From assembly GCA_903831815.1 (NCBI GenBank), contig CAIKZC010000001.1:149502-213501 (forward strand): a DNA stretch of 64,000 nucleotides. The letters are read 5' to 3'. The stretch is from an uncultured bacterium. Lineage in GTDB: Bacteria > Patescibacteriota > Minisyncoccia > Phycocordibacterales > UBA11359. The first letter of the stretch is position 1; each line of letters opens with the position of its first letter. Of the stretch, positions 5,207-51,339 are shown piece by piece. The notes below the pieces were generated by a model. That model made no database searches. It saw nothing but the letters and a program-made list of their open reading frames with translations, and was not told where the DNA came from. A program made the position numbers and the translations under genes.

Positions 5207-5220
5207 ACTATCTTAAGATA
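5207..5220. promoter_or_regulatory. Palindromic motif ACTATCTTAAGATA (copy 1), 7-20 nt upstream of the ATG of the 3901-5199 gene
   Basis: A perfect 12-bp palindrome TATCTTAAGATA. The same motif recurs at 5767-5779, 29331-29359 (split) and 43546-43558, always just upstream of a minus-strand start codon. Confidence 0.45.
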
Positions 5221-5223
5221 AAA

Positions 5224-5730
5224 TTAATATGAGCCGCGCAAAACTATGGTCGTGTAAAAATTCCTACTAGTACTTGCCGTGCCGACCGTACTCGATAGCC
5301 CTAAAATGATTTTAATGGCTTGTGAATTTGTGCTGGTAGATAATCTGAATTCTAAATTATTCACATTCACTCCGTTTAAAGTGAGCGGGCCGACATACGA
5401 ACCGCTCGAATCCACGCTGATTCTATTATTAGATAGATAAAATTTAATTGTTTGAGGATTTCCACTAACATCTGTCGTGTTAAGCGTCAGCGCTCCGGTG
5501 CTGGTAGCCAACGTACTCTGAGCGACGTTAACCGAAGAAGCATTGCGAATATCTCGCGATATGCGCTCGAGTGAAAAGATTGCGGATGATTCCAAGTTTT
5601 TGGTCGCTTGAATGGTTTGATAAGTTTTGGTCAAAGATATCACCAACGCGATCACAACTCCAAGCAAAATAACCATAAAAGCCAAATAAAATAGCGTTTC
5701 GACCATCGTGAACCCACCGTTTTTTTTCAT
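5224..5730 (-). CDS. Type IV pilin / pseudopilin (prepilin-type N-terminal cleavage/methylation domain)
   Basis: The N-terminus is MKKNGG|FTMVETLFYLAFMVILL, with G-1, F+1 and E+5. Confidence 0.8.
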   Translation of the reverse strand: MKKNGGFTMVETLFYLAFMVILLGVVIALVISLTKTYQTIQATKNLESSAIFSLERISRDIRNASSVNVAQSTLATSTGALTLNTTDVSGNPQTIKFYLSNNRISVDSSGSYVGPLTLNGVNVNNLEFRLSTSTNSQAIKIILGLSSTVGTASTSRNFYTTIVLRGSY

Positions 5731-5766
5731 TATTTTTTTAAAAAAAATCTTTTTTCATAGGGTACT

Positions 5767-5779
5767 CTATCTTAAGATA
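5767..5779. promoter_or_regulatory. Palindromic motif CTATCTTAAGATA (copy 2), in the 51-nt gap between two pilin genes
   Basis: It reads AGGGTACTCTATCTTAAGATA. On the coding (minus) strand the motif is followed by CCCTATG plus a 6-codon mini-ORF, and then the pilin ATG at 5730. Confidence 0.45.
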
Positions 5780-5781
5780 AA

Positions 5782-6297
5782 TCAATTGCTCCAAATATTT
5801 GTTAAATACACCGAAAGAGATTTGCTGGTAGTACCCGTTCCTCCATTCCAAGAAACTGTAGCCGTTATCAATGTCGTGCTAGCATCAAGTGTCGCTCCAG
5901 AAGTGCCATTTGGCACAATGTCCTTGGTGGCGTTTCGATATGTTGAACTGGCAATTATCGTCCGATCAAAAAATCCATCAATAAGCGATTGAGGGGTAAG
6001 GGTTGTAGACCATTTTGACGTTGTCGTATTGAAAGTTAAATAATATTTCGTTGAAGTGGCGGTTGAAAGCGTTGCTATGTTACCACTCCAGCTTTGATCT
6101 CGCAAAAGTTGCATGGATTCCAAACTCTCTTCCAACAAATATGCCGCTTGAATATTTGGCGTATTGTGGATCATGACCTGCAAATAATAATTGTAAGCGC
6201 CGATCAAACCCAAAATTCCGATCGTAATCATGGTGATGCCAATGAGAACTTCAACCATACCCATGCCTTTTTTATTTTTTAATGAAAAATATTTCAT
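5782..6297 (-). CDS. Type IV pilin / pseudopilin
   Basis: The N-terminus is MKYFSLKNKKG|MGMVEVLIGITMITIGIL, with G-1 and E+5 conserved. Confidence 0.7.
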   Translation of the reverse strand: MKYFSLKNKKGMGMVEVLIGITMITIGILGLIGAYNYYLQVMIHNTPNIQAAYLLEESLESMQLLRDQSWSGNIATLSTATSTKYYLTFNTTTSKWSTTLTPQSLIDGFFDRTIIASSTYRNATKDIVPNGTSGATLDASTTLITATVSWNGGTGTTSKSLSVYLTNIWSN

Positions 6298-6299
6298 GT

Positions 6300-6761
6300 C
6301 TAATTTGGTTGAATAAGTCCGGTTGAATAGATCGCCACCGTGCGAGTTACCGAATCATTGGCGACAAGAGAAAGAGTCGTTGTGCCCATTTGATTTGTTT
6401 CACCGCTCAATCGATTAAAAAGAATGTCTGAACCGCCGCCAACCAAAGTGATATTTGAAATTTGCACCCTCGGATTTAAAGTTGTCACCAGATTTGAAGA
6501 ATTTGCCGGATTGTAAGTCGTGCCGGTAAAAATAGTAACCGTACTAGTGGCAAAATGCACTCCATATTGTGAGCTATTATATGAATCAAGTGTAAGGGCA
6601 CGAGCTTTTTCCAACACAGAAACGACTCGCGCTTGATCTTTGGACAACGCTTCAGTCGAACTGTAATTAGAAAATGAAAAAAACATTATCATAGAGACCA
6701 TAACAGTGATCGCTACAACCATAAGAGTCTCAGCCAATGTAAATCCCAAACTTTTATTCAT
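6300..6761 (-). CDS. Type IV pilin / pseudopilin
   Basis: The N-terminus is MNKSLG|FTLAETLMVVAITVMV. Confidence 0.8.
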   Translation of the reverse strand: MNKSLGFTLAETLMVVAITVMVSMIMFFSFSNYSSTEALSKDQARVVSVLEKARALTLDSYNSSQYGVHFATSTVTIFTGTTYNPANSSNLVTTLNPRVQISNITLVGGGSDILFNRLSGETNQMGTTTLSLVANDSVTRTVAIYSTGLIQPN

Positions 6762-7982
6762 TTATTTTATGTTAGTCATAACTGAATACGTCGGCGAAAG
6801 CATTGATATAGCAAAGAATCCAACTCCGGCTCCGATTAAAACCATAAGAAGCGGTTCAACAATCGTCGACATGTCTTTGGTGCGCTGATCGACTTCATTT
6901 TCATAATAGATCGCAATTTCCATCAACATTGACGCGAGTTTTCCGGTTTCCTCTCCGACATTCATCATTTCACCGACAAAAGAAGGATATAGTTTTTGAT
7001 TCTCCAAAAATACTCCCGAGATGGCTTCACCGTTTTGAATGACCTTCTTAGCCTTAACAATAACTTCTTTAAAATAAGAATTTTGAATGACCTGCTCGGT
7101 TATTTCCATTGCCACGACCATATCCACACCGGAAGAGAGTAATGAAGAAAGTGTGCGAGTGGTGCGGGCAGAATTGATCTCCCTAACCAGCGTACCTACG
7201 ACCGGTATCTTTAGCCACATCGTGTCGATCGCCCTTTTCCCCCAAGAACTTTTTGCAATCGAACTCACGATCGCAAACAGAACGATAACGACGCCCAACA
7301 AAATAATTCCGTGATGAATGAACATGTCGCTGACAAATATAATGAGTTTAGTCGACCAAGGCAGATCGACGTGTAAATCGTTGAAAGTCGCCACCAAAGT
7401 CGGTACAACATAGACCATCATAAGGACGGCGATTCCACTCATAACGACCAAAATTACCGCCGGATACATCATCGCTCCGCGAATTTTCTTTTGCAGTGAT
7501 AAAGTTTTTTCCAATTGCTCGCCCACATTTTTAAGTGAATGAGAAATGTCCCCGCTTTCTTCACCAGAGTGAGTCATAGAAATGAAAAGTTGAGAAAAGA
7601 TTTTTGGATATTGCGACATAGACTCGCTCAATGTCTTACCTTTCTTTATACCGTCTCCTAAACTGGCGATTATTTTTTTGAATTTTTTATTTTTGGTTTG
7701 TCTTTGCAAAACTTCAAGTGCTCGAGCCATCGGCAGTCCCGCTTCGATCATAGCTCCCAAATTTTTGGCGAAAATGATTTTTTCTTGCGCTTTTATCCTC
7801 GAAGTAAAACTGGCAAAACTTTCATTTGCAAGCGAAAACCAATTATCTTTTTTTTCAGACGCAGTGATCATCATAAGTCCTTCCTTTTGCAGATCTTTAA
7901 AAAGAGTGATCTTGTCGACCGATTCTTTAATCCCCTCGACCGTCTCATTCGCTTCATTTGTCGCTTTGTATGAATATTTCAT
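6762..7982 (-). CDS. pilC: Type IV pilus assembly inner-membrane platform protein (GspF/PilC family)
   Basis: The 406-aa protein has duplicated T2SS-F type domains and three TM segments, and lies immediately downstream of the PilB ATPase. Confidence 0.9.
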   Translation of the reverse strand: MKYSYKATNEANETVEGIKESVDKITLFKDLQKEGLMMITASEKKDNWFSLANESFASFTSRIKAQEKIIFAKNLGAMIEAGLPMARALEVLQRQTKNKKFKKIIASLGDGIKKGKTLSESMSQYPKIFSQLFISMTHSGEESGDISHSLKNVGEQLEKTLSLQKKIRGAMMYPAVILVVMSGIAVLMMVYVVPTLVATFNDLHVDLPWSTKLIIFVSDMFIHHGIILLGVVIVLFAIVSSIAKSSWGKRAIDTMWLKIPVVGTLVREINSARTTRTLSSLLSSGVDMVVAMEITEQVIQNSYFKEVIVKAKKVIQNGEAISGVFLENQKLYPSFVGEMMNVGEETGKLASMLMEIAIYYENEVDQRTKDMSTIVEPLLMVLIGAGVGFFAISMLSPTYSVMTNIK

Positions 7983-8005
7983 ATTTCAAAAATTATTTAA
8001 ACAAA

Positions 8006-9757
8006 TTATTCCGCTACGACACGCAAAACTTCCTCGATCGTCGTTTCGCCTTGAACCGCTTTGAAAACACCGTCTTCCAACATTGTGATCATGCCTTCTG
8101 TTTTGGCTTGTGCTTCAATGGTGTCCGATGTTGCGCCTTTCATAACCAAATCTTTTATGGTCGTAGACATTTTCAAAACTTCATGAATGCCGATACGTCC
8201 CTTGTATCCATCCTCCGCATCGGAACTTCCGATCGGTTTATAAAAAGGAATTTCTTTCCAAGTCGCAGTAGGTGCAACGACTTTTTCTTCAATCAAAATT
8301 TTCAAAACACGATTTAGGTCAACTAATTTGTTAAGTGAAGTCATCTCAGCTTCATCTAAGAAATATTTTTCTTTCTTTTCGGCAAGTCGACGAACCAAAC
8401 GTTGTGCTATAACGATATTAAGAGTAGAAACAAGTAAAAATGACTCGACTTTCATATCGAGAAGTCGTGGCATTGCTCCCGAGGCCGAGTTGGTGTGCAA
8501 AGTCGAAAGCACAAGGTGGCCTGTGAGCGCAGCGTTGATCGCAAGAGAAGCCGTTTCGTTGTCGCGAATTTCACCGACCATTATAATGTCCGGATCTTGT
8601 CGAACCAAAGTACGCAGGCCTGTGACGAAAGAGAAACCGATCTCGGGTTTGACTTGCGATTGATTGACTCGGGCCAATTGATATTCGATCGGATCTTCGA
8701 TCGTGGAAATATTTACGTCCGGCGTATTCAAAATATCCAAAACGGTATACAAAGTCGTCGTTTTTCCCGAACCGGTCGGACCAGTCGTAAGGATCATGCC
8801 AACAGTCGCTTTCATGGCTTGATGAATACGTTCCAAATTTTCGCCATGAAAACCTAGTTTCTCCAAAGTGTATCCGGCGGCGCTTTCTCGCAGGAGTCGC
8901 ATAACGGTTTTTTCACCGTAATAAGTCGGCAAAGTCGAAACACGGAAAGAAACTTTCTCCCCATTCATCTCGATCTTGAAACGTCCATCTTGCGGCAAAC
9001 GTTTTTCATCCAACTTCAAATTGGAAAGGACTTTGATACGCGCCGTAATGCCGCTGGCCGCATTTTTTGGCAAGACCATGGCGTCACGCAAAATACCGTC
9101 GATACGATATCTGATGAGCATATCGCTTTCGAGAGGTTCCATATGAATATCTGACGCGCCTTGTAAAATCGCATGTTTCAAAAGTGTTTCCACTATACGC
9201 ACGACAGGCAGATCTTCCGCTTGTTTCTTTAAATCACTGACACTGACATCTTCCCCTCCATTTCCGGACAACGATGTGATAGCGGCGGCATCTTTTTGAA
9301 TGAGATCGCCGAACTCAGCCTTCAAACTTTTTTGATACAACAAAACCGCGCTCTTAAGCGATTCACTATCTGTAAGGCGTGGCAAAATTTTTAGATCGAC
9401 TTTTTTCTTGATGAAATCGATGGCGCTCAAGTCCTCGGTATCAAGCATAGCCACTTCGAGCGAATCCTCGTTCTTTTTGAAAGCCACAATGTTGTGATTG
9501 CGGGCAATTGGTTCCGGAATAAGAGAAAGGACATCAAACGGAATCTTGGCGCCTTTCAAATCCACAAAAGGAATGCCGACAATATAGGCTTCCATGCGTC
9601 GCAAATCATCTTCGGTCATTTTGCCGGTGGTCACCAAATATTTTCCCAGATGAACATCCTTCTTTTTGGCTTCGATTTCCGCAGCGTCAAGATCGGCTCG
9701 GGAAATCAGTCCAGAGTCAATGATAAATTCCTTTAATTGTTTCTCTTCAATGTGCAT
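8006..9757 (-). CDS. pilB: Type IV pilus assembly ATPase PilB (GspE family). I place the start at the ATG of MHIEEKQLKEF; the ORF-track start is a GTG 20 codons upstream.
   Basis: It has an N-terminal GSPII-like domain, the Walker A GPTGSGKTTTLY, Asp and His boxes, and a TGHLVLSTLHTN motif. Confidence 0.9.
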   Translation of the reverse strand: MHIEEKQLKEFIIDSGLISRADLDAAEIEAKKKDVHLGKYLVTTGKMTEDDLRRMEAYIVGIPFVDLKGAKIPFDVLSLIPEPIARNHNIVAFKKNEDSLEVAMLDTEDLSAIDFIKKKVDLKILPRLTDSESLKSAVLLYQKSLKAEFGDLIQKDAAAITSLSGNGGEDVSVSDLKKQAEDLPVVRIVETLLKHAILQGASDIHMEPLESDMLIRYRIDGILRDAMVLPKNAASGITARIKVLSNLKLDEKRLPQDGRFKIEMNGEKVSFRVSTLPTYYGEKTVMRLLRESAAGYTLEKLGFHGENLERIHQAMKATVGMILTTGPTGSGKTTTLYTVLDILNTPDVNISTIEDPIEYQLARVNQSQVKPEIGFSFVTGLRTLVRQDPDIIMVGEIRDNETASLAINAALTGHLVLSTLHTNSASGAMPRLLDMKVESFLLVSTLNIVIAQRLVRRLAEKKEKYFLDEAEMTSLNKLVDLNRVLKILIEEKVVAPTATWKEIPFYKPIGSSDAEDGYKGRIGIHEVLKMSTTIKDLVMKGATSDTIEAQAKTEGMITMLEDGVFKAVQGETTIEEVLRVVAE

Positions 9758-9828
9758 GGAGAATAAGTGTGTTAAGTATAACAAATTAAATTCAAAAAAT
9801 CTCCACAAGATATACACGACTTGCGTAC

Positions 9829-9925
9829 AAGAATACGGTTTTCAGGGTCCGGATAGTTTTTCCGCTGAAAAACTTCCTCACACTCGCGCCGTCGCGCTCC
9901 GTGAGCCCCTGAAAACCGTATTCTT
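9829..9925. repeat. Copy 2 of the IR-flanked GC-rich core element. The 20-bp arms are AAGAATACGGTTTTCAGGG(T/G), and the core is in opposite orientation to copy 1.
   Basis: Arms at 9829-9848 and 9906-9925 match 19 of 20. The reverse-complemented core GCTCACGGAGCGCGACGGCGCGAGTGTGAGGAAG aligns with the copy-1 core at about 75% identity by eye. It sits between the divergent pilB and 10032 ORF starts. Confidence 0.6.
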
Positions 9926-10031
9926 TCCCGCAAGTTATGAATAAATTATGTAAATTTGACACCAGTAATGTTTTGTGATATTAAAGTAGAGGAAACTAGT
10001 ATTACTTTACCCATGAAAAGGAGTCCGCACA

Positions 10032-12091: not shown

Positions 12092-12116
12092 GATTTAAAA
12101 AAACAAACCAGCAAAC

Positions 12117-12146
12117 AAAAAACTTCCCTCCGGAAGTTTTTTGTTT
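12117..12146 (+). terminator. Rho-independent terminator after nusA (AACTTCC...GGAAGTT + T-run)
   Basis: Read directly from the sequence. Confidence 0.7.
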
Positions 12147-17920: not shown

Positions 17921-18045
17921 ACACTAAACAAAACCGAAAACATACTTTTGAGTGCCTTGCGCAGCGCGACTGGCGCGAGCGGAGCGGACGGCCAGTAGGC
18001 CGGAACGCGTGCAACTCAAAAGTATGTTTTCGGTTTTGTTTAGTG
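17921..18045. repeat. Copy 3 of the IR-flanked GC-rich core element. A perfect 32-bp inverted repeat, ACACTAAACAAAACCGAAAACATACTTTTGAG, encloses a 61-nt GC-rich core.
   Basis: Arms are at 17921-17952 and 18014-18045. The core contains AGCGCGACTGGCGCGAG, matching AGCGCGACGGCGCGAG in copy 2. It lies 13 nt upstream of the rsmE start, in the divergent rsmE/clpP intergenic region. Confidence 0.6.
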
Positions 18046-18696: not shown

Positions 18697-18760
18697 TTAA
18701 GATAGTATCTCATTTTGGAAGTCATGTTCTCAATCACTGTTCTAACAAAGGAGTGTTCCC

Positions 18761-26301: not shown

Positions 26302-27045
26302 TTAATTCAACGCGTTCCACATTATTTCAAATTGTTCTTTTTGCATTTGCACAATACTTCTATTTTCAATCACCACCGTCATTATTGGCGCAGCCATTTG
26401 AGTAATGATGACTCGATGAGGAGTGATGACCATGTTTGCCGACAACACAGTATCTTTCGGTAGAAATTTTACAGTCATTGTAGTATTTCTTTCTATCTCT
26501 TTATAATAATGCGCGTCACTTGTATCCTGCAAAATCGCTCGCAAATTTAAATTATATTTAACTCGGTTTTCAATAAACTTGGTAAAATAATCTCTGTCCA
26601 TACTCAAAAACTTTTCCATATCAGAAATAACCACGTAATCATCTCCGGGTTTCAGTCCATCAAGAATGTGATCATAAACAGTTCTAACACCTTGAACACC
26701 TTCATAATATTTTATAAAACTTTCTCCACCTTTTAAGTTGTACATTGCCGTAAGTTCCGGTAGCACTTTTTTAAACCGATCCTTTTTCTGTTCAAATATT
26801 TGTTCAAGTTTTTCCGGACCTTCAGCCGTATATAGAGTTTTGAGACCTTTCACTTCGTTAATGATCAAACCTCTCAGTTTAAGGGTTTCAAGCACAGAAT
26901 ATGCTGTCGTTCTCTTAATTTCAGCTTCTTTAGCAATCTTTAGAACCGTGGCAGGCCCGAGGGAAAGGGAAGAAAGGTAAACTTTAGACTCATTTTCCGA
27001 AAGCCCTAAATCCTGAATATATGATATAAAATCTATTTTTTTCAT
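26302..27045 (-). CDS. TrmB-family transcriptional regulator (HTH plus C-terminal effector domain). The start is placed at MKKIDFISYI.
   Basis: It has the N-terminal wHTH LGLSENESKVYLSSLSLGPATVLKIAKEAEIKRTTAYSVLETL followed by a TrmB-like C-domain. Confidence 0.6.
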   Translation of the reverse strand: MKKIDFISYIQDLGLSENESKVYLSSLSLGPATVLKIAKEAEIKRTTAYSVLETLKLRGLIINEVKGLKTLYTAEGPEKLEQIFEQKKDRFKKVLPELTAMYNLKGGESFIKYYEGVQGVRTVYDHILDGLKPGDDYVVISDMEKFLSMDRDYFTKFIENRVKYNLNLRAILQDTSDAHYYKEIERNTTMTVKFLPKDTVLSANMVITPHRVIITQMAAPIMTVVIENRSIVQMQKEQFEIMWNALN

Positions 27046-27267
27046 ATAATTTTTACTATTTTGAATATATGTCAAACTATTTGACAACACTATTATTACA
27101 TAATCTGCATAATTAGCAAGCTAATTTACAGCCTATATGTGGATATGTCGTCATATTTGACATACTATACAATAATGTGCTATACTTGTAAATAGATAAA
27201 CAGTTCTTTGACTAAGGGTTCTTCACTTGTTGTGAGGGACAAATAGCCAAAAGGAAAGGAGATTGCG

Positions 27268-28555: not shown

Positions 28556-29323
28556 TTATTTTATCTCCAGCGAAATAGGGCAATGGTCGGAACCATAGAT
28601 GTGCGACAAAATTTCGGTTTTATTTATGCGCGGCAATAAATCGGACGAAACAAAAAAGTAATCGATGCGCCAGCCGACATTGCGGTCACGAGCAGCGGTT
28701 TTCATATCCCAATAAGTGTACGCGTCAATTTTATTCGGATTTAAATGTCGAAATATATCGACGTAGCCATGATTAACGACTTCATCTATCCACGCGCGCT
28801 CTTCCGGCAAAAATCCGGTGTTCTCTTCATTCTCTTTTGGTCGAGCCAGATCAATTTCTTCATGTGCAGTATTAATGTCACCACAAAAAATAACTGATTT
28901 GCTTTGCTTGCGCAGTTTCTCCACAAATTTCAAAAACTCGTCATAAAATTCCAATTTATATTTCAAACGCTCCGGCCCGCCTCCGCCGTTCGGAAAATAA
29001 ACATTGAGCAAAACAAAATCTTTGTAATACGCAGCAATGAGTCGCCCCTCGATATCCAAATGGGGAAGTCCTAGCACGAATTCAACTTTCTCCGGTTTTA
29101 TTTTTGAATACAAAGCCACGCCGCTGTAACCTTTTTTCTCTTTTGGCGAATCGAAATAAGAAAAATAACCGTGAGGGTTTCTGATTTCTTCCGGCAATTG
29201 TTCGGCGGTCGCTTTCACTTCCTGCAAACAAAAAATATCCGGTCGCTCGATCATGAGCCATTGCCAATTGCCTTTTTTGACCACTGCACGCAGACCATTT
29301 ACGTTCCAAGAAATGATTTTCAT
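28556..29323 (-). CDS. xth: Exodeoxyribonuclease III (AP endonuclease, EEP family). The start is at MKIISWNVNG.
   Basis: Motifs WNVNG, QE.K, GD.N..H..ID and SDHCP are present. The split palindromic motif lies 8 nt upstream of the ATG. Confidence 0.9.
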   Translation of the reverse strand: MKIISWNVNGLRAVVKKGNWQWLMIERPDIFCLQEVKATAEQLPEEIRNPHGYFSYFDSPKEKKGYSGVALYSKIKPEKVEFVLGLPHLDIEGRLIAAYYKDFVLLNVYFPNGGGGPERLKYKLEFYDEFLKFVEKLRKQSKSVIFCGDINTAHEEIDLARPKENEENTGFLPEERAWIDEVVNHGYVDIFRHLNPNKIDAYTYWDMKTAARDRNVGWRIDYFFVSSDLLPRINKTEILSHIYGSDHCPISLEIK

Positions 29324-29330
29324 AGAATTC

Positions 29331-29359
29331 ACTATCTTAGGGTTACACCACTTAAGATA
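29331..29359. promoter_or_regulatory. Split copy of the palindromic motif, ACTATCTTA-GGGTTACACCA-CTTAAGATA, upstream of xth
   Basis: The half-sites are separated by GGGTTACACCA. The same AGGGTTACAC block flanks the intact palindrome at 43536-43558. Confidence 0.4.
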
Positions 29360-29483
29360 AGATACTGAAATGGTATCAATAATCGCCTCAAAATGAAACA
29401 GTTCTTCAATTTTTATTCTCTTGAATATTTTTGACATTTATTGTATAAGTTACGTCAGATCCTAACACTAACCTGGAGGAAAC

Positions 29484-29947: not shown

Positions 29948-30973
29948 TTATTTTCTGTTCTTACCGTGAAATTTTTTGTGAATATCGCCGAGATGCTTGT
30001 CGGTGACGTGAGTGTAAATTTGAGTTGTGCCGATATTGGCGTGACCAAGGAGCGCTTGCACCGAGCGTAGATCGGCACCGTTAGACAAAAGATCTGTCGC
30101 AAAGCTGTGTCTGATGACGTGTGGCGTAACTTTTTTAGAAATTCCAGCTTTGACGGCGTAATGTTTGACGATGCGCTCCACCGAACGGCGAGTTAATGCT
30201 GAAATATCCGTGCCGTCGTCGCGGGTAGTCTTTTTTTTGTCAGGTTTTTCACTTTTTGTGTCGTTTTTTTTGGTTTCAGTAGTTTTTTCACTCTTTTCAG
30301 CCTTCACACTCTTTTGAAAACCGTTTTCACCACCAACTTTCACAAAAAGTGCATCTTCCATGTCTTTGCGCTTGTCCAAATAGGTTTTGAGCGCCATGCG
30401 AGCAGTTTCCGAAAGAAAAACCACGCGAACTTTGCCACCTTTGCCACGAATCGAGAAATGATCGGCGCGAATATCCAAATCGCGCGAAAGAGAACACAAT
30501 TCCGACACACGAAGCCCGGTCGAGAACAATAATTCCAAAATCGCGCGGTCACGCAGAGACCCAACGTCACTTCCGTCAGGCGCAGCAAGCAAACGTGTCA
30601 ATTCTTCGGCCGAAATAAAGTCGATTTGGCGTTCGTTGACCTTGGCTAGCTCGATGCGCTCGGCCGGCAACGACTCAATTTTCTGCCGAGTCAAATATTT
30701 TAGAAATGCCCGCAATGCAATCAGGTAATAATTCTGAGTTTTCTTGGAAAGAGTGAGTCCTAGAGCCTTATTATTCCCAGTGGACTGGCGATTTAGCCAC
30801 AAACGGAAAGTGCGAATTACTTCATCCGTGATTTTTTTCGGATCTTCCGTCTTGGCAAAATTTAAGAAAACATCCAAATAATGCTCATAGTTAGCCACCG
30901 TTTTGAGGCTTCGGCCTTTTTCGATTTCAGTATATTCGAGAAATTGACGTTTTAAATCTTGTAAATTTGCCAT
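29948..30973 (-). CDS. Tyrosine site-specific recombinase of the XerC/XerD family, with a Lys/Glu/Thr-rich insertion
   Basis: It has the N-terminal SAM-like core-binding domain and catalytic R..HxxRHSFAT...Y residues (GHANIGTTQIYTHV). A roughly 50-aa KE-rich low-complexity insert precedes the HxxR box. Confidence 0.85.
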   Translation of the reverse strand: MANLQDLKRQFLEYTEIEKGRSLKTVANYEHYLDVFLNFAKTEDPKKITDEVIRTFRLWLNRQSTGNNKALGLTLSKKTQNYYLIALRAFLKYLTRQKIESLPAERIELAKVNERQIDFISAEELTRLLAAPDGSDVGSLRDRAILELLFSTGLRVSELCSLSRDLDIRADHFSIRGKGGKVRVVFLSETARMALKTYLDKRKDMEDALFVKVGGENGFQKSVKAEKSEKTTETKKNDTKSEKPDKKKTTRDDGTDISALTRRSVERIVKHYAVKAGISKKVTPHVIRHSFATDLLSNGADLRSVQALLGHANIGTTQIYTHVTDKHLGDIHKKFHGKNRK

Positions 30974-37102: not shown

Positions 37103-37136
37103 TTGCTTTTACTTCTTGTTTTGGTAAGATTGTTGT

Positions 37137-37496: not shown

Positions 37497-37558
37497 AGAC
37501 CTGAAAACGACGTTTTAGATTTTATAAATATTTTAACTCATGCGCGTATAATGCGGGC

Positions 37559-39100
37559 ATGAGTTTTGCTAAAACCTACAGCGCCCAAATTTCATATTTA
37601 AAAGCCAAACTGGTAACAATGGAGGTTGACCTTTCACGCGGACTCCATGCTTTTTCGATTGTCGGGATGCCTGACAAATCGGTTGAAGAAGCTCGCGATC
37701 GTATTTCGGCGGCCATAAAAAATTCCGGATTTGATTCACCTAAAAGCAAAAATCAAAAAGTTGTGATTTCTCTCGCTCCGGCCGAACTACCTAAAGAAGG
37801 CGCCATGTTTGATGTTGGTATGGCCATTGTTTATCTTAAAGCGGCCGGAGAAATAGATTTTGATTCGGAAAAGAAAATGTTTTTCGGTGAGCTGGCGCTC
37901 GATGGCACAGTCAGAAAAATCAATGGCGCGATCACGTTAGTCCGCGAAGCCAAGCTGCTTGGCTTCGCGGAAATATATTTACCAAAAGAAAACGCCGTTG
38001 AAGCGGCGCTTATCGACGGAATAAAAATATTTCCAATTGATAATTTGCGGCAACTTATTGAACATCTCGATCCAAGGATCGGCAAAAAGAAAATAACCGC
38101 GCAACCGCCAACAAAAATTATTCCTGAAGAAACAATTTTCAATATCGATATTTCCGACATTAAGGGACAAGAGGGGAGCAAGCGAGGACTGGAGATAGCC
38201 GCATCCGGCGGACACAACATTGCATTTTATGGTCCGCCCGGCACAGGTAAAACTATGTTAGCCAAAGCGTTTTGTTCCATTCTCCCGCAACTTACGTTTG
38301 ATGAGATTTTGGAAGCAACCGCAATTCATTCCGTATCAGGAACACTTCAAAATAAATATATTTGCGAGCCCCCATTTCGCGCTCCGCACCACAGCGCTTC
38401 ATATATTTCAGTTATCGGTGGAGGATCCAATCCAAAACCGGGAGAGGTCACTTTAGCCCATCACGGAGTTCTTTTTCTGGACGAATTTCCGGAATTTGAT
38501 CGCCGTGTTTTGGAATCCTTACGTGAACCATTAGAAGAAAATATCGTGCGAGTTTCCAGAGCTAAAGGCTCCGCCGATTTTCCGGCTCAATTTATTTTAA
38601 TTGCCGCCATGAATCCGTGTCCTTGCGGGAATTATGGAAATAAAAACAAACCATGCACATGCGTAACCGGTTCTCTTTTGAGATATCGGCAAAGAATTTC
38701 CGGGCCAATAATTGATCGCATCGATTTGTGGGTCGAAGTTTCTCAGGTTAATTACAAAAGTTTAGCTACAAATGCACCAAGCGAAACAAGCGATATGGTG
38801 CGCAAGAGGGTGGAAGCGACTCGAACAATTCAATATATGCGATCCAAAAAAATTAATTTGCCACCAATGTTGAATAGTAAAATTCCATCTCGAATTCTCA
38901 CAAAATATGCCAAAATTTCCGATGAAGCCAGCGAGATCTTAACCATTTCAGCCGAAAAATTAAATATTTCCGCACGAGTCTATCATCGACTTATAAAAAT
39001 AGCCCGCACGATCGCGGACATGGAGAAAAGCGAAACAATTGAGAAACGTCACATGCTTGAAGCTTTGCAATACCGACCTCGACAACATTTAACCGGCTAA
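37559..39100 (+). CDS. comM: YifB/ComM-family Mg-chelatase-like AAA+ ATPase
   Basis: It has a Lon-like N-terminus, the Walker A GPPGTGKT, the VLFLDEFPEF motif, and a C-terminal ChlI-type domain. Confidence 0.9.
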   Translation: MSFAKTYSAQISYLKAKLVTMEVDLSRGLHAFSIVGMPDKSVEEARDRISAAIKNSGFDSPKSKNQKVVISLAPAELPKEGAMFDVGMAIVYLKAAGEIDFDSEKKMFFGELALDGTVRKINGAITLVREAKLLGFAEIYLPKENAVEAALIDGIKIFPIDNLRQLIEHLDPRIGKKKITAQPPTKIIPEETIFNIDISDIKGQEGSKRGLEIAASGGHNIAFYGPPGTGKTMLAKAFCSILPQLTFDEILEATAIHSVSGTLQNKYICEPPFRAPHHSASYISVIGGGSNPKPGEVTLAHHGVLFLDEFPEFDRRVLESLREPLEENIVRVSRAKGSADFPAQFILIAAMNPCPCGNYGNKNKPCTCVTGSLLRYRQRISGPIIDRIDLWVEVSQVNYKSLATNAPSETSDMVRKRVEATRTIQYMRSKKINLPPMLNSKIPSRILTKYAKISDEASEILTISAEKLNISARVYHRLIKIARTIADMEKSETIEKRHMLEALQYRPRQHLTG

Positions 39101-40069
39101 CTAAAAAGGATTTTTGGCACCACGAACCTCAACGTGAAGGTGAGGGCCAGTCGATTCGCCGGAAGAACCAACCAAAGCGATCTTTTGTCCTTGAGTTACA
39201 GTTTCACCCTCAGAAACAAGGAGTTTACTTGCGTGACCGTATACCGTTTGTGTTCCGTTATCATGTTGGATAACCACATAGTTTCCGTATCCACCATTCC
39301 AACCCATACGACTAATTATAACTTCGCCATCGGCGGCAGCCATAATCGGCGTTCCAACAGGTGCACCTAGGTCAACTCCGTTGTGACCATGAATTCCTTG
39401 TGTCTTGTGATAACCCGTTAATGGTTCGATAAAATATCCTACATCGTTGATCAATCCTGAAACCGAAGAATTCTGTATTCGACATAGACTGCACAAAGTT
39501 GGTGCCGTATGCGATGAAGATCTAGGAGTATTTGAGCTTGGCGAAATATCTGATGGAACAAAAACCGTATCACCGACTGCAAGCAGAGATGGATTATCAA
39601 AAGAGTTGTATTGCAAAATATCTTGAACTGAAACTTTGTAGGCCTTGGCAATACTGCCAATATTTTCTCCGGATTTAACCGTGTGCTCAACACCTGAAAC
39701 AGGCAAAATGATCAAACGCTGACCTTCGAGCAATTTCGAACTGGTCATATTGTTGGCGATCATGATGGTATTTGTTGTCACGCCAAAAGTTTTGGCAATT
39801 TGAGGTAGAGTGTCGCCGCTTCGAACCACGTATGTGGTGATTTGCGAGCTATCAAAGACCGGAGCCGTTGTGGTGCTGTTACCGGTTGGATCTATTTCAG
39901 CATACAAAGATGAGCCATCTACAATTACGGGCATTTGATCGACTTTGGTCGGATTGGGGTCAACGTTGACCGCAGCTTTAAGTAGGGCAAGGTTTTGCGA
40001 GTTCTGAACTATTGGCCGCTCCGAAGCGTCGGCAGGTGTATTAAAAAATCCCGATATAAAAGAAAACAT
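39101..40069 (-). CDS. Secreted M23-family metallopeptidase with two LysM domains
   Basis: It has LysM repeats (YVVRSGDTLPQIAKTFGV..., HTVKSGENIGSIAKAYKV...) and a C-terminal HxxxD...HLH M23 core (GVDLGAP...GPHLHVEV). Confidence 0.85.
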   Translation of the reverse strand: MFSFISGFFNTPADASERPIVQNSQNLALLKAAVNVDPNPTKVDQMPVIVDGSSLYAEIDPTGNSTTTAPVFDSSQITTYVVRSGDTLPQIAKTFGVTTNTIMIANNMTSSKLLEGQRLIILPVSGVEHTVKSGENIGSIAKAYKVSVQDILQYNSFDNPSLLAVGDTVFVPSDISPSSNTPRSSSHTAPTLCSLCRIQNSSVSGLINDVGYFIEPLTGYHKTQGIHGHNGVDLGAPVGTPIMAAADGEVIISRMGWNGGYGNYVVIQHDNGTQTVYGHASKLLVSEGETVTQGQKIALVGSSGESTGPHLHVEVRGAKNPF

Positions 40070-40351
40070 ACTGGCTGAGACAGTATGGGGATAGATAACG
40101 AGAGTTAAATAGACAAAAAATCCTATAAATAGGACCGTTTTAACGCGTCGGTTTATGGGTTGCTTATTAATAAGGCTAAGAGTTAGGTTATAATCAGTCT
40201 TTTCGGGAAATATGGCTCTGTTGAGCCATTTAAAAGCGGTCAGGAATGCTCAAATTTCTTGAGTGATAATAGTATATCTTGCTCAAAATCAATGTCAACA
40301 ATGAAAAAATTCAACTGTGGATAACCTTTTTCGTGCTATTATAGTGAAACT

Positions 40352-42316
40352 ATGGGTTCAGATACGCAAACGTACTTACAAGGCTTAAATGAGCGACAAA
40401 AAGAGGCTGTTTTACAAACGGAAGGTCCCGTTTTGATCGTGGCTGGCGCCGGTGCAGGCAAAACAAAAACCATTACACATCGAATCCTGAATCTTGTACA
40501 TAAAGGTGTTGCTCCAAACGAGATCTTGGCCATCACTTTTACCAATAAGGCCGCTCATGAGATGCGCGAACGCATGGACAAGCTTCTTGAGAATGACAAG
40601 ACTCTAAATTTACCTATTTCTTTCACCACACGTCCGCTTCTTTGCACTTTTCACTCACTCGGCGTGCTTATCCTACGAGAAAACGCCGCGATTCTCGGTC
40701 TTTCACGCAATTTTACCATTTTCGATAAAAGCGATTCCAAAAGAGCGATAAAAGAAGCGCTTGAAATTTGTAACATTGATCCAAAACAGTTTGACCCCGG
40801 GAAATTACAGAACATCATCTCCAGACAAAAGGGTGATGGAGTAACCCCCGAAACTTTTCGTGAAAAAATGGGTAAAGAGTACCTACAAAGTATTCTTGGC
40901 AGAGTCTGGGAACAATATGAGAGCATTTTGAAAAGAGAAAAATCTCTGGACTTTGACGATCTGCTTCTCAAAACACTTTCTCTCTTGCGAGAAAACGAAA
41001 GTGCTAGAGAGCATTATCAAAACAAATGGAAATATGTTCACATAGATGAATATCAGGACACCAACAAGGTACAATATTTGATCAGCAAGATTTTGGCCGA
41101 AAAAAGTCGAAATATTTGCGTGGTTGGAGATGTTGATCAAAATATTTACAGTTGGCGTGGCGCAGATATTCAAAACATGTTGAGTTTTGAAGAAGATTAT
41201 CCTGAAGCCAAAGTTGTGATGCTCGAAGAAAATTACCGTTCAAGCAAAAATATTTTGAGTCTGGCTAATACGGTTATCAAGAAAAATAAATTCCGTAAGG
41301 AAAAAAATCTATTCACCAACAACCCGACAGGGGAGAAGATCGGTTTGTTCCAAGGATATGACGAAAGCGACGAAGCCTATTTTGTGGCACATAAAATAAA
41401 TTCTCTAATCGAGAACGGCGCCAAGGCCGAGGAAATTGCCATCCTCTATCGTGCCAATTTTCAATCACGTATTATTGAAGAAGCTTTGTTACATTATGAA
41501 GTGCCATACCACGTCCTCGGCACACGTTTTTATGAACGAAAAGAAATCAAAGACGCTCTTTCATATGTGCGCGCCGCTTTAAACCCTGAATCACTCTCGG
41601 ATATTAAACGAATTATCAACGTGCCAACTCGTGGTATTGGAAAAGTTACGATAGTTAAAATGTTTTCCGGTCAAGAAGAATCTCTACCTTCCGCCACCCG
41701 CGCCAAAATCCAAAATTTTAAAAATCTGCTTTCTGAAATCGCGCAAAATATTCCAATTAAAAAACCTTCGGAGATATTTACCGATCTTATCAAGAAAACC
41801 GGTCTTGATACCGCCCTTGAAGATGGTACTGATGAAGGAGTTGAGCGAGTTGAGAACATAAAGGAACTCGTAACGCTCGCAACAAAATATGATGACATGC
41901 CATTTCCGACCGGTATTGAAAAAATGTTGGAGGAAGCGGCACTCGCTTCAGATCAGGATTCGCTCATCAAAAAACAAACCAATGCGGTTAAAGTCATGAC
42001 CGTCCATGCCGCTAAAGGTCTTGAGTTTGATTATGTCTTCATTACCGGTTTGGAGGAAAATCTTTTTCCGCACAAAAGAATGGGTGAGGAACGTAAGAGT
42101 GAGGAAGATGAAGAGGAAGAAAGACGGCTTTTTTACGTCGCCATTACTCGCGCTCGCAAAAAACTATATCTTTGCTATGCTTCGATACGAACAATTTTTG
42201 GTTCAAAACAAATGAACATTCCGTCGGAATTTTTGAGCGACATAGATGAATCGCTCGCCGAAGAAGAAATTTGGCAGAAGGACGCGGAAAGACCGTTCAA
42301 GACCATTCGTTTTTAA
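40352..42316 (+). CDS. pcrA: ATP-dependent DNA helicase, UvrD/PcrA family
   Basis: It has the AGAGAGKT Walker A, the TFHSLG motif and the DEYQDTN box. Confidence 0.9.
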   Translation: MGSDTQTYLQGLNERQKEAVLQTEGPVLIVAGAGAGKTKTITHRILNLVHKGVAPNEILAITFTNKAAHEMRERMDKLLENDKTLNLPISFTTRPLLCTFHSLGVLILRENAAILGLSRNFTIFDKSDSKRAIKEALEICNIDPKQFDPGKLQNIISRQKGDGVTPETFREKMGKEYLQSILGRVWEQYESILKREKSLDFDDLLLKTLSLLRENESAREHYQNKWKYVHIDEYQDTNKVQYLISKILAEKSRNICVVGDVDQNIYSWRGADIQNMLSFEEDYPEAKVVMLEENYRSSKNILSLANTVIKKNKFRKEKNLFTNNPTGEKIGLFQGYDESDEAYFVAHKINSLIENGAKAEEIAILYRANFQSRIIEEALLHYEVPYHVLGTRFYERKEIKDALSYVRAALNPESLSDIKRIINVPTRGIGKVTIVKMFSGQEESLPSATRAKIQNFKNLLSEIAQNIPIKKPSEIFTDLIKKTGLDTALEDGTDEGVERVENIKELVTLATKYDDMPFPTGIEKMLEEAALASDQDSLIKKQTNAVKVMTVHAAKGLEFDYVFITGLEENLFPHKRMGEERKSEEDEEEERRLFYVAITRARKKLYLCYASIRTIFGSKQMNIPSEFLSDIDESLAEEEIWQKDAERPFKTIRF

Positions 42317-42337
42317 CTTTATTCAAAAAATATTTTC

Positions 42338-43123
42338 ATGTTTGCCAAAAAATCACTCGGACAAAACTTTTTAAAATCTAAAGCGGCTCTGCGTGCCATG
42401 GTTGCGGCTGCAAAAATTGATACAAGTGAAAAGGGAACGATCGTTTTAGAAATAGGACCAGGTAAAGGCGTTTTGACTGAAGCCTTAATTCAAACAGGAG
42501 CTCGCGTAGTTGCCGTAGAAAAAGACGACCGATTGATCGCGGTTCTGCAGGAAAAATTTCAAAAAGAAATTACAAACAATCAACTTCAAATTATTCACGG
42601 TGACGCCCTGGAGTTTGATCCAAGTACTTTCTCCGCTGATTATAAAATAGTTGCCAACATACCGTATTACATTACCGGACAATTTTTCAAGCATTATTTA
42701 ACTGCGGAAAATCAACCAAAAAGCATCGTCGTCATGGTACAAAAAGAAGTTGCGCATCGAATCGTCGCTAGAGACGAAAAAGAAAGTTTATTATCGCTTT
42801 CAGTTAAGTGCTATGGCACACCGATTTACGTCATGACTGTTCAGAAAAAATATTTCTCACCTGAACCAAAAATCGATTCGGCGATCATCGCAGTCGAAAA
42901 TATTTCCAGAGATTTTTTTAATGTCATATTGGAAAATAAATTTTTTGACGTCATCAAAGCGGGTTTTGCTCACAAGAGAAAAGTGCTTATCAGCAACCTG
43001 GAAACGATCACGCCTCGTGAAAAATTAAAAAATGTTTTCCAAAAATTGAATATCTCGGAAAAGATCCGCGCCGAAGACATCACGCTAAACGACTGGAAAA
43101 ATATCTTGAAAGAATTGCAATAA
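42338..43123 (+). CDS. rsmA: 16S rRNA (adenine1518/1519-N6)-dimethyltransferase RsmA/KsgA
   Basis: It has LGQNFL, EIGPGKGVLT and NIPY motifs. Confidence 0.9.
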   Translation: MFAKKSLGQNFLKSKAALRAMVAAAKIDTSEKGTIVLEIGPGKGVLTEALIQTGARVVAVEKDDRLIAVLQEKFQKEITNNQLQIIHGDALEFDPSTFSADYKIVANIPYYITGQFFKHYLTAENQPKSIVVMVQKEVAHRIVARDEKESLLSLSVKCYGTPIYVMTVQKKYFSPEPKIDSAIIAVENISRDFFNVILENKFFDVIKAGFAHKRKVLISNLETITPREKLKNVFQKLNISEKIRAEDITLNDWKNILKELQ

Positions 43124-43125
43124 AA

Positions 43126-43536
43126 TTATATAGCCGTCGAACCGATTCCAATAATAGAATCGATTGTGCCTAGAGTTTGGCCAATCGGAGAACAACTTGG
43201 TGGCACCGTGGGCACTGTTTGTTGGCAAGATATTGGAGTCGGAACGTAAGAACCAAGGACTTGGGGGCCTGACTTCCAAATATTATAATTTGCGCGAACC
43301 AAAGAAGTTAGCGGATTGTAAAAAAAACTCTCAGGACTTCCTGCCGCAGATTTATCAAGAACTGTTATCATCGTTCCCGGATTGTAATAGCATGTACAAT
43401 ACACAACGTTAATTATCGGACCTCCGTAATATACGCCAACTGCCTTAGCTACTTTTCTCGGAAAAGGATATAAAAGACTGACTATTGCGACCACAACGGT
43501 AAGAATGCAAATAAATGAAATAATAATTTTTTTCAT
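43126..43536 (-). CDS. Small secreted Cys-containing protein (136 aa) with a signal peptide
   Basis: The N-terminus is MKKIIISFICILTVVVAIVSLL. On the coding strand TATCTTAAGATAGTGTAACCCT lies immediately upstream of the ATG. Confidence 0.55.
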   Translation of the reverse strand: MKKIIISFICILTVVVAIVSLLYPFPRKVAKAVGVYYGGPIINVVYCTCYYNPGTMITVLDKSAAGSPESFFYNPLTSLVRANYNIWKSGPQVLGSYVPTPISCQQTVPTVPPSCSPIGQTLGTIDSIIGIGSTAI

Positions 43537-43545
43537 AGGGTTACA

Positions 43546-43558
43546 CTATCTTAAGATA
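43546..43558. promoter_or_regulatory. Palindromic motif CTATCTTAAGATA (copy 4) with an adjacent AGGGTTACAC block, ending 10 nt upstream of the 43536 start codon
   Basis: It reads CATAGGGTTACACTATCTTAAGATAAT. Confidence 0.45.
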
Positions 43559-51338: not shown

Positions 51339-51339
51339 T

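Follow-up and report, generated by a model that had tools for sequence, protein, structure and literature searches.

The SDRs of cyanobacteria, said to have been described by Elhai and colleagues in 2008, are reportedly dispersed intergenic repeats of 21 to 27 bp with an internal palindrome, which vary at orthologous sites, nest, are shared between genera and have no known transposase. To our knowledge, they have not been reported to duplicate TA, to sit in start or stop codons or to obey the orientation of open reading frames. The Correia elements of Neisseria and the pneumococcal RUP are TA-duplicating MITEs moved by transposases of the IS630/Tc1-mariner type; they are 100 to 400 bp long, have terminal inverted repeats of at least 20 bp and lie in intergenic regions near gene starts and ends, and Correia elements supply or alter the promoters and transcripts of their neighbors. 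Few mobile elements are known to us in Parcubacteria. REP elements form stable GC-rich hairpins with a conserved GTAG-type tetranucleotide, co-occur with a RAYT gene and frequently lie at the ends of genes, pointing either way (PMC3116915).

A perfect 12-bp palindrome upstream of pilin, secreted-protein and DNA-repair genes had been noticed in the DNA of an uncultured bacterium, from which a stretch of 64,000 nucleotides (the window) was analyzed here. The observation itself was confirmed, and its interpretation as a whole is partly supported and mostly fails. The palindrome TATCTTAAGATA occurs exactly at 5209-5220, 5768-5779 and 43547-43558 of the window, i.e., three times compared to 0.20 expected at up to one mismatch, a count reached by none of 100 shuffled sequences, and no one-mismatch copies were found in the window. 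The split copy reported at 29331-29359 upstream of xth has the described sequence and reads TATCTTATCTTAAG-TGGTGTAACCC-TAAGATAGTGAATTCT-ATG on the minus strand. All four window copies lie on the minus strand and are joined directly to an ATG, where three of four had been counted by the sequence-only reading, with no Shine-Dalgarno sequence in between, as it had stated. Two copies, number 3 and the split one, have the adjacent GTGTAACCCT block in exact form, and variants replace it in copies 1 and 2 (Table 1).

Table 1. Element copies and associated features in the window
Feature	Position	Strand	Description
Element copy 1	5199..5220	-	TA-TCTTAAGATAGTATTCTC-TA, variant block; reads TATCTTAAGATA-GTATTCTCT-ATG (ATG at 5199)
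6-codon ORF and spacer	5731..5758	-	ATGAAAAAAGATTTTTTTTAA, MKKDFF and stop; follows copy 2 and precedes the pilin ATG at 5730; T8 run at 5740-5747
Element copy 2	5758..5779	-	TA-TCTTAAGATAGAGTACCC-TA; reads TATCTTAAGATA-GAGTACCCT-ATG (ATG at 5758)
Possible degenerate fragment	18697..18710	+	TTAAGATAGTATCT; directly after a TATAAT overlapping the clpP stop codon; nhmmer E = 19, not significant
Composite (split) copy 4	29323..29364	-	TA-TCT-TA-TCT-TA-AGTGGTGTAACCC-TA-AGATAGTGAATTC-TA; joined to the ATG of xth (28556-29323; ATG at 29323)
Putative ancestral leaderless promoter of xth, retained	29365..29378	-	TGATACCAT (29370-29378) + TTCAG
Element copy 3	43536..43558	-	TA-TCTTAAGATAGTGTAACCC-TA, AA at the N position; reads TATCTTAAGATA-GTGTAACCCT-ATG (ATG at 43536)

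Copy 1 lies 3 nt past the TAA stop of a pilin gene (5224-5730) and shares its final A with the ATG of a 432-aa pilus-associated gene (3901-5199); the product, previously called GspK-like, has no Pfam match, and its homologs are named PilX-like or "choice-of-anchor R." The ortholog of copy 1 in the relative L046 has a nested or tandem form. Copy 2 lies 2 nt past the TGA stop of the gene 5782-6297. In this assembly, its ATG opens only six codons and the pilin open reading frame begins 28 nt further on, whereas the L046 ortholog of copy 2 is joined to the true pilin start and the frame is open from the ATG of the motif into the pilin (MKKDFLKKITNR...). Because the L046 ortholog reads through, the T8 run of the window has either a frameshift of one base or an assembly error, and the segment 5731-5758 looks like the frameshifted remnant of the ancestral N terminus of the pilin. 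Copy 3 is located 2 nt past the TAA stop of a PG-binding gene (43561-44328), directly at the ATG of a 136-aa gene (43126-43536), and seven contigs of the same strain (L001-L007) are identical to the window at this copy. Whether the fragment at 18697-18710 belongs to the element family is uncertain.

The palindrome forms the left-hand side of a recurring block, (TATCT)n-TAAGATAGTGTNCCC-TA, the core of which, TCTTAAGATAGTGTNCCC, is 18 to 19 bp long and has TA on both sides in every copy. In other Parcubacteria, the same block stands ahead of gyrB, rpsQ (S17) and genes for a Mur ligase, 6PGD, an S41 protease, a formyltransferase, VanY and a serine recombinase, and in inverted form it is joined to the TAG stop codon of the genes for S7, S11, L36, SWIB and PBP2; the genes flanking the copies are functionally unrelated. 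The start-abutting copies all point toward the gene (17/17), always reading ...CCC-TA-TG, and CCCT is fused to the ATG in every one of them with no variable spacer. In all five inverted copies, CCCTA is joined to the TAG stop. The TA corresponds at gene starts to T(-1)A(+1) where the ATG is leaderless, or to the TA before TG in a stop-to-ATG junction, and at gene ends to the first two bases of a TAA stop; because the element is inverted there, its G re-creates a stop codon as TAG. The proposed nonrandom tie of the motif to gene boundaries was borne out.

The five long forms share the order TCT,TCT,unit,unit, and the order TCT,unit,TCT,unit was seen in none of them. The inner unit is nearer to the consensus in four of the five, and the segment order of the split forms is that expected if a copy nests at the central TA of a second one. 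Copy quality ranges from perfect to decayed (w1, w4, L020b, L036b, and L046), with at least six decayed positions in the element at xth. The patterns that retrieved most copies outside the window themselves included the palindrome or the block, which leads to an overestimate of conservation.

The palindrome had been proposed as the operator of a dimeric regulator controlling a small pilin and xth regulon. A sequence-specific dimeric DNA-binding protein would then use it as an operator or roadblock, and the downstream genes would form one regulon. The perfect palindrome is accompanied by a second, imperfect one (ATAGTGTACCCTAT) centered 10 bp off, the copies occupy places where repressors typically bind, either immediately past a predicted transcription start or across the -35 region of the following promoter, and a TrmB-family regulator is encoded in the window (26302-27090). 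HU genes are present in the window as well, and neither they nor the TrmB-family gene is linked to the site. However, TrmB is also found in relatives without the motif, and dyad symmetry is not kept: the left half-site is changed in both orthologous copies of L046 (TATCTA in TATCTAAAGATA and TATTTT in TATTTTAAGATA), decayed in L020b (TATTTAAAAATA) and missing from the ATG-nearest units of the long forms. The strict dependence of orientation on boundary type (17:0 at starts and 5:0 for the inverted copies at stops) argues against a symmetric operator, which does not predict a single orientation at starts. The targets gyrB, S17, Mur ligase, 6PGD, VanY, pilins, and xth lack functional coherence, and site presence differs between orthologs of xth and of the Mur ligase in close relatives; UBA11359 carries the motif elsewhere and not at xth. 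An operator with its own regulon is therefore very improbable, and the four window copies most likely reflect a history of insertion, not a common regulator.

Comparison of orthologous sites with and without the element, in which sites with two indels were resolved by affine-gap alignment, yielded three filled/empty pairs. The genes for PBP2 and a Mur ligase are neighbors in both L020 (UBA11359) and L032, with Mur ligases 83% identical. The empty PBP2 stop of L032 reads ...GACCGA-TAA-AAATGTTACAAT..., and the filled one of L020 reads ...GACAGA-TA-( GGGTACACTATTTTTAAA-TA )-A-AAATGTTACAAT..., an indel of 20 bp composed of 18 bp plus a duplicated TA inside the TAA. In the same spacer, the Mur ligase start is filled in L032 (TGTTACAAT-CATAAA-(43-nt element)-ATG) and empty in L020 (TGTTACAAT-CAAAAT-ATG). 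The xth start of the window, TGATACCAT-TTCAG-TA-(40 nt)-TG, corresponds to TGATACGAT-TCTTAT-ATG in UBA11359, which is devoid of the motif; the proteins are 81% identical, and deletion of 29325-29364 gives TGATACCAT-TTCAGT-ATG, with the geometry of the UBA11359 ortholog. At both starts, an extended -10 (TGnTAnnnT-N6) is retained and the element separates it from the ATG. The clean 18-bp-plus-TA event is seen in one of the three pairs, the PBP2 stop, where the target site duplication of TA is direct; the xth and Mur ligase starts are composite forms with small additional differences and are consistent with TA duplication. The direction of the indel, insertion versus precise deletion, was inferred without an outgroup.

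On balance, we favor with moderate confidence the view that the palindrome is part of a very small dispersed insertion that duplicates TA at start and stop codons in a few Parcubacteria genomes, and not a pilin or DNA-repair operator. The element would insert at the TA of a gene boundary and duplicate it. Spacers in these genomes appear to consist only of stop, extended -10, N6, and ATG, so that boundary TAs may be the sole sites tolerating 20 extra bases, which would explain why every copy abuts an open reading frame. After insertion at a start, the old promoter would be kept and the element would become the whole 5' leader lacking a Shine-Dalgarno sequence, and within operons it would become the entire spacer between genes; such a leader may be tolerated because most genes there are probably translated without Shine-Dalgarno pairing. 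Insertion alone does not account for the purely forward orientation at starts, which requires selection or an asymmetric target. Four phased TAnnnT hexamers in the element may add promoter activity beside the ATG, and this could account for the single orientation.

Among the known systems, the SDRs resemble it in kind: the element is an intergenic, dispersed, palindrome-bearing repeat of about 20 to 27 bp with filled and empty sites and nesting (same order in 5/5 long forms) in several lineages, and it is unlike them in sequence and host phylum, which are unrelated. With TA-duplicating MITEs (roughly 50 to 500 bp), it shares the flanking duplicated TA and the intergenic position near gene starts and ends, but its core measures 18 to 19 bp and the ends are not inverted repeats. 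No IS630-like gene and no DDE transposase gene was present in the loci, which are genome fragments only; a Xer-like integrase and one large serine recombinase are encoded there, and no transposase or recombinase was found linked to the element. The likeness to REP and REPIN sequences is confined to their being short extragenic repeats often located at gene ends, as the element does not fold and no RAYT gene was seen.

The normal start signal of this genome has to be considered at the same place. Of 56 window genes, 6 have a TGnTAnnnT whose end is exactly 6 nt upstream of the ATG, which supports wide use of leaderless promoters. Where an extended -10 sequence lies no more than 10 nt from a start codon of the window, the gap to the ATG is 6 nt in six genes and 9 nt in two, and never 5 nt. 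In the element, AGA-TAGTGT stands 5 nt from the ATG (6 nt in AA variants) and TAAGAT 10 nt from it. It might therefore be a compact promoter in which a -10-like hexamer (TAAGAT, GATAGT, or TAGTGT, with AGA giving the extended -10 G) initiates at or within 5 nt of the ATG, producing leaderless or near-leaderless mRNAs and internal operon promoters, a reading compatible with insertion. It occupies the same site as the normal stop-TGnTAnnnT-N6-ATG cassettes (e.g., at 50272 and 53917), is similar in length and shares TAnnnT hexamers and the extended -10 G; at xth it stands in the promoter position of the ortholog. The invariant CCCT-ATG fusion is expected if the transcription start must coincide with AUG, nGnTAnnnT next to ATG occurs only in forward orientation, and T-A-T at -1/+1/+2 matches the YRY "start element" (PMC12641261). 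Against this stand the spacing of the best register, TAGTGT, which at 5 nt instead of 6 nt is never used by the extended -10 sequences of the window, and the loss of T(-7), which is A at xth and at junction 2 of L046 in the unit nearest the ATG. The near invariance of its nonconsensus bases also sets the element apart from the normal start signal. Inverted copies at stops would moreover fire antisense into S7, S11, and L36, and a -35/-10 scan showed no site in gene direction at any copy.

Canonical promoters are retained upstream of the element. A strict TGNTANNNT promoter is found directly upstream of four of eight nonoperonic forward copies, and of six of eight with relaxed hexamers, at a chance background of 3.7% per 45-nt window. 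An intact, older extended -10 is kept just upstream of four to six copies, including xth, where the element itself has decayed, and its presence at xth and three to five other nonoperonic copies suggests that the motif is transcribed as a leader and is not the sole promoter. TAAGAT, which had been singled out as a -10 element, is retained as one of several phased TAnnnT hexamers, and a promoter role as the main function of the motif is not supported, given the intact extended -10 upstream. Promoter activity from the phased hexamers is possible, and a compact promoter as the full explanation is unlikely.

Transcription of the element raises the alternative of a functional RNA leader, in which UAUCUUAAGAUAGUGUNCCCU would serve as a Shine-Dalgarno-independent initiation region or as a site for an RNA-binding protein or sRNA. 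By the N6 rule, transcripts from the upstream promoters would begin with the first bases of the element, implying that it is transcribed, and the ribosomal-protein junctions of these genomes do without Shine-Dalgarno sequences. Forward and inverted copies are exactly complementary, and where an inverted copy stands at the 3' end of another mRNA, it could pair with the leader over at least 20 bases. Five instances folded no better than shuffled sequences (z of 0.1 to 0.4); the unstructured state favors Shine-Dalgarno-independent initiation, but no secondary structure is conserved and Rfam 15 detected only tRNAs in the window and 13 loci. An altered or extended Shine-Dalgarno sequence was rejected: UAAGAUAGUGUACCC agrees at 10 of 14 positions with the complement of a 16S 3' tail taken from other organisms, a probable coincidence, but GAUAG replaces the GGAGG core and normal sites are used elsewhere in the genome (GGAG, GAGG, or AGGA in ten other window genes). 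A functional leader also leaves the constant use of the TAG of the element as a stop by inverted copies unexplained and does not agree with the at least six decayed positions at xth. Taken together, a dedicated function of the RNA seems decidedly unlikely.

If the insertion reading is correct, a conserved palindrome before several genes is an insertion trace and not a sign of co-regulation, and caution is advisable in motif-based regulon inference in reduced genomes. Even the compact genomes of Parcubacteria would then harbor a family of active repeats, each about 20 bp long, that uses the only insertion-tolerant positions of their spacers, and xth and the Mur ligase would provide a natural experiment on leaderless versus leadered expression, close relatives having the same promoter with and without a 20- to 45-nt leader lacking a Shine-Dalgarno sequence. 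More tentatively, an 18-bp core that duplicates TA, nests in the center of its own palindrome and inserts precisely into the TA of leaderless starts and TAA stops might rank among the smallest mobile DNA elements and be the first of its kind in the candidate phyla (Patescibacteria). We know of no characterized transposition mechanism that fits an 18-bp core without terminal inverted repeats, and such an element, if real, would imply an uncharacterized one; it would also convert leaderless genes to leadered ones, and its forward and inverted copies could make complementary RNA pairs.

Several other identities were considered and rejected. DNA uptake sequences (DUS/USS) occur about once per kb in both orientations and also in genes, and here there are four copies in 64 kb, none coding, with orientation tied to open reading frame boundaries. 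The reverse complement resembles an SP6/T7-type promoter at 11 of 15 positions, in the wrong orientation and with no initiating G. The NrdR box, the TrmB/TGM motif, the BirA half-site, the DnaA box, the RfaH ops site and the ECF -35 show only partial likeness, with wrong spacing or gene sets. One copy lies ahead of the large serine recombinase in L020, the only link to a site-specific recombination site, and a replication-strand rule does not hold, since ribosomal-protein operons contain copies in opposite orientations (L029 versus L031). Viral contigs gave no match to the 18-base pattern and five to a 16-base pattern, without the left part and the gene-boundary context and probably by chance. 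The literature on the motif sequence and on leaderless promoters in Patescibacteria yielded nothing relevant.

The distribution of the element among relatives is patchy. It was absent across about 80 kb from five relatives with 73 to 76% PilC identity and also in L047 and L050. Copies are present in UBA11359, L032, and L046, with 70 to 86% amino acid identity to the window, and also in MAGs labeled Moraniibacteriota and Magasanikbacteria, distant lineages named here by record titles only. At both junctions shared by the window and L046, the copies agree closely (19 of 21 positions at one of them) despite protein identity of about 70%, which hints at function or recurrent insertion.

The 12-bp palindrome TATCTTAAGATA was present in three exact copies in a scan of the window (copies 1 to 3), whereas 0.20 matches with up to one mismatch were expected by chance and three were reached in 0 of 100 shuffles; no one-mismatch copy occurred in the 64 kb. 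Together with the split copy upstream of xth (copy 4), whose product is an Exo_endo_phos protein by Pfam, these copies bear out the placement of the palindrome upstream of ATG codons in the sequence-only reading. Every functional reading lies on the minus strand, on which copies 1 to 3 each show the order palindrome, block of 9 to 10 nt and ATG. Copies 1 to 3 start 2 to 3 nt past the stop codon of the preceding same-strand gene, and the motif makes up approximately the entire intergenic spacer. The ATG of copy 2 opens a 6-codon ORF only, and the pilin ORF (MKKNGGFTMVE...) begins 28 nt farther downstream. In the ortholog on L046, a contig locus of another genome, the pilin ORF begins at the motif's own ATG, which shows the window mini-ORF to be an apparent frameshift in a T run. 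The pilin has seemingly lost an N-terminal extension of 10 codons because a T/A homopolymer tract differs by one base, whether through an error of sequencing or assembly or because the site is prone to slippage.

Element copies and neighboring features (window positions unless a contig locus of another genome, L013 to L051, is named)
Feature	Position	Strand	Sequence or detail
Copy 1	palindrome 5209-5220; ATG at 5199	minus	GTATTCTCT-ATG
Copy 2	palindrome 5768-5779; ATG at 5758	minus	GAGTACCCT-ATG
Copy 3	palindrome 43547-43558; ATG at 43536	minus	GTGTAACCCT-ATG
Copy 4 (split, upstream of xth)	ATG at 29323	minus	TATCTTATCTTAAG-TGGTGTAACCC-TAAGATAGTGAATTCT-ATG
Inverted copies	L031		stop codons of S11 and L36
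Inverted copy	L033		S7 stop codon
Inverted copy	L013		SWIB-protein stop codon
Inverted copy	L020		PBP2 stop codon
Pilin gene	5224-5730		seemingly lost N-terminal stretch 5731-5758; T8 run 5740-5747
TrmB-family regulator	26302-27090	minus	flanks xth region
XerC/D-like tyrosine recombinase	29948-30973	minus	flanks xth region
T4SS-like cluster	45364-55370		PrgI, TraC-like protein, VirB4/TraG P-loop ATPase, T4SS pilin
Chromosomal origin region	56652-60666		yidC (-), rnpA (-), dnaA (+), dnaN (+); AT-rich spacers ~57750-57990 and ~59357-59565
Leaderless extended -10 examples	37559, 44353, 50272, 57992, 36413, 32162, 37137		at times fills a 19-nt intergenic spacer
Long hairpin	889-1002	plus	66-nt core GGGACTCACGGACGCCGACGGGCGGAGTGTGAAGGAAATTTCCAGCAGGAAATTTACCTGTGCCC; also L031 3245-3310, L037 8079-8145
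Long hairpin upstream of clpP	~17930-18040	plus	also L034 988-1076
Long-form element	L034 577-660		4-codon ORF ATGAAAAAACTGTGA, then hairpin CTGTG...CACAG-TTTTT
Serine-recombinase region	L020 85-1683 and 3026-3097		perfect element copy before the gene
Inverted repeat	L051 857-905		AAAATCTTAAGGT-N11-ACCTTAAGATTTT

The usual gene-start signal in the window is an extended -10, TGnTAnnnT-N6-ATG, ending exactly 6 nt before the ATG, a leaderless architecture found genome-wide; among 56 ATG-start genes, the spacing was 6 nt in 6, 9 nt in 2, and 5 nt in none. Orthologous sites with and without the element were compared against this geometry. PBP2 and Mur ligase genes are adjacent in UBA11359 (L020) and in L032, with Mur ligases 83% identical. 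At the PBP2 stop, the empty site of L032 reads ...GACCGA TAA AAATGTTACAAT... and the filled site of L020 reads ...GACAGA TA[GGGTACACTATTTTTAAA TA]A AAATGTTACAAT..., a 20-bp indel consisting of an 18-bp core and a duplicated TA that lies inside TAA and regenerates a TAG. The Mur ligase start is leaderless in L020 (TGTTACAAT-CAAAAT-ATG), compared to TGTTACAAT-CATAAA-[43-nt long form]-ATG in L032, and the differences at the stop and the start are therefore independent events of the two lineages in one 22-bp spacer. Likewise, xth of UBA11359 has no element (TGATACGAT-TCTTAT-ATG), and the window carries the same promoter with 40 extra bases, TGATACCAT-TTCAG-TA-[...]-TA-TG, where taking out the bases between the first and last TA gives back the exact N6 geometry. 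We infer insertion rather than deletion from two observations: the geometry of the empty states is the canonical, functional one, and TA is duplicated in the events. The best-supported reading overall is that the element represents a TA-duplicating, self-nesting family of mini-insertions in the TAs of start and stop codons.

TA steps recur every 5 bp in the consensus TA-TCT-TA-AGATAGTGTNCCC-TA; the palindrome itself, a further, imperfect one (ATAGTGTACCCTAT), and four TAnnnT hexamers in phase all follow from this spacing. In all five long or split forms (copy 4, L032, L034, L036a, and L046 junction 2), the segment order was TCT, TCT, unit, unit. Insertion of a copy at the central TA of a second copy would be expected to leave this order, in contrast to TCT, unit, TCT, unit if the entire element had been duplicated in tandem. 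In four of these forms, the outer unit deviated more from the consensus than did the inner unit, consistent with a younger inner unit. Some slippage takes place as well, as shown by additional TCTTA repeats in L013, L036a, and possibly L011. The long form of L034 has only a very short ORF and a terminator-like hairpin after it; it is what is left of a lost gene start or else a very small transcript. In L051 (UBA11359), the gene for the Xer-like integrase is separated from the promoter of xth by an inverted repeat that has ATCTTAAG in common with the palindrome and may represent a terminator or a relative of the element.

Orientation was tied to the type of gene boundary. All copies at gene starts (17/17, 11 of them found without an ATG requirement) were forward, with CCCT fused to the ATG; 8 were operonic (gap of 0 to 9 nt after the upstream stop), 8 non-operonic, and 1 at a contig edge. 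In the inverted copies, the block end CCCTA, read in reverse complement, provided the TAG stop codon of a gene in 5/5, and past the palindrome lay a terminator or the canonical promoter of the next gene (TATACT-N6-ATG or TGTTACAAT-N6-ATG). A symmetric operator does not predict such a strict rule, which speaks against the proposal of a dimeric-regulator operator. A pure promoter or RNA-leader model leaves the inverted class unexplained.

Strict TGNTANNNT promoters were located directly upstream of four of the eight non-operonic forward copies, a number that rises to six when the hexamers GATAAT and GAAAAT are allowed, against a chance background of 3.7% per 45-nt window. Applied to these promoters, the N6 rule predicts starts at the opening bases of the element. 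At the window xth, the old promoter is intact and the element has decayed at at least six positions. In the simplest reading, the element would be transcribed and become the entire 5' leader without a Shine-Dalgarno sequence, or an intergenic spacer in operons. Such a leader would be tolerated, since translation in these organisms seldom depends on Shine-Dalgarno pairing; Shine-Dalgarno-like sequences occurred in 10 of 56 window genes (~18%) and in none of the ribosomal-protein junctions of related contigs. No significant RNA structure, Rfam family, or anti-Shine-Dalgarno complementarity was found for the block. Promoter activity of the element itself beside the ATG is possible but secondary: AGA-TAGTGT-ACCCT-ATG is similar to an extended -10 with a spacing of 5 nt, the T-A-T at the element-ATG junction agrees with the YRY start element reported in PMC12641261, and the forward-only orientation at starts would be accounted for. 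Speaking against a promoter as the main role are the register of 5 instead of the usual 6 nt, the replacement of T(-7) by A in two of the units next to an ATG, the older promoters kept upstream, and the inverted copies; the earlier idea of a -10 element with a short leader is a secondary possibility.

A scan of one genome per species with the pattern TATCTTAAGATAG-N6-7-CTATG gave 23 matches, and a metagenome scan without the ATG requirement six further contigs; since the patterns that recovered the majority of copies beyond the window contained the palindrome or block, conservation is overestimated and the counts are no census. Sixteen matches fell in Firmicutes, Bacteroidota, archaea, and other non-CPR genomes with unrelated downstream sequence and no long ORF except in L024; among these, the match in L016, from a "bacterium" MAG without classification, may also be genuine. 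The remaining seven, all sharing the extended block TATCTTAAGATAGTGT[N]CCCTATG, were in Parcubacteria MAGs (five UBA11359, one labeled Moraniibacteriota, and one Magasanikbacteria), with lineage names taken from the titles of the records. Genes directly downstream encode 6-phosphogluconate dehydrogenase, S41 protease, GyrB, large serine recombinase, formyltransferase, S17, Mur ligase, and VanY. This variety excludes the small co-regulated set of pilin genes and xth suggested earlier, and the operator and regulon reading of the palindrome is not supported.

In L046, where the gene order is the same and the 432-aa protein ~70% identical, both of the orthologous junctions in the pilus genes carried the element, though the left half-site and unit number were changed. 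The more distant L047 and L050, with the same gene order, had overlapping or 5-nt junctions without the element, and five relatives at 73 to 76% PilC identity had none in ~80 kb; an nhmmer profile of the element matched none of these. Copies ranged from perfect to clearly decayed (copies 1 and 4, L020b, and L036b). A copy-and-decay repeat family would fit better than binding sites arisen independently at each locus, because presence is patchy, identical sequence recurs across lineages, and decay is graded. In L020, a tRNA gene follows downstream of the Mur ligase gene, with the large serine recombinase gene close by, and this region may be an integrated mobile element; L032 also has the tRNA gene.

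TA duplication is the hallmark of IS630/Tc1-mariner MITEs, e.g., Correia elements, which measure 100 bp or more and end in terminal inverted repeats; the element shares the duplication but has no terminal inverted repeats. Closest among described systems are the cyanobacterial "very small mobile repeated elements" (SDRs, 21 to 27 bp), reportedly described in a 2008 study by Elhai and colleagues that PMC3116915 cites. REP/REPIN was rejected (no hairpin, and no RAYT gene in the genome fragments covered), as were an uptake sequence, a Shine-Dalgarno site, and a canonical promoter. Neither the sequence nor an element of this kind in Patescibacteria was found described in the searchable literature, and the family would add a variant to very small dispersed repeats.

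The window is Parcubacteria-like (GC 41%), with a type IV pilus operon containing pilB, pilC, and pilins, and shows 78 to 86% identity in xth and neighboring proteins to the MAG "Candidatus Taylorbacteria UBA11359", where the integrase, xth, and TrmB neighborhood is kept. All four copies lie left of the origin region, and the T4SS-like cluster adjoins copy 3 and its 136-aa secreted-protein gene. Two long hairpins had no Rfam family, the first even at E ≤ 1. The hairpin at 889-1002 is a candidate unannotated ncRNA; its 66-nt core, in which the part GAAGGAA...AGCAGG recalls SRP RNA, is 88 to 95% identical in other Parcubacteria contigs, and the closing stems differ yet remain complementary. An unrelated contig shares the core of the hairpin upstream of clpP (GTGCCTTGCGCAG...GAGCGGACGGCCAGTAGGCCGGAACGCGTGCA) with 88% conservation.
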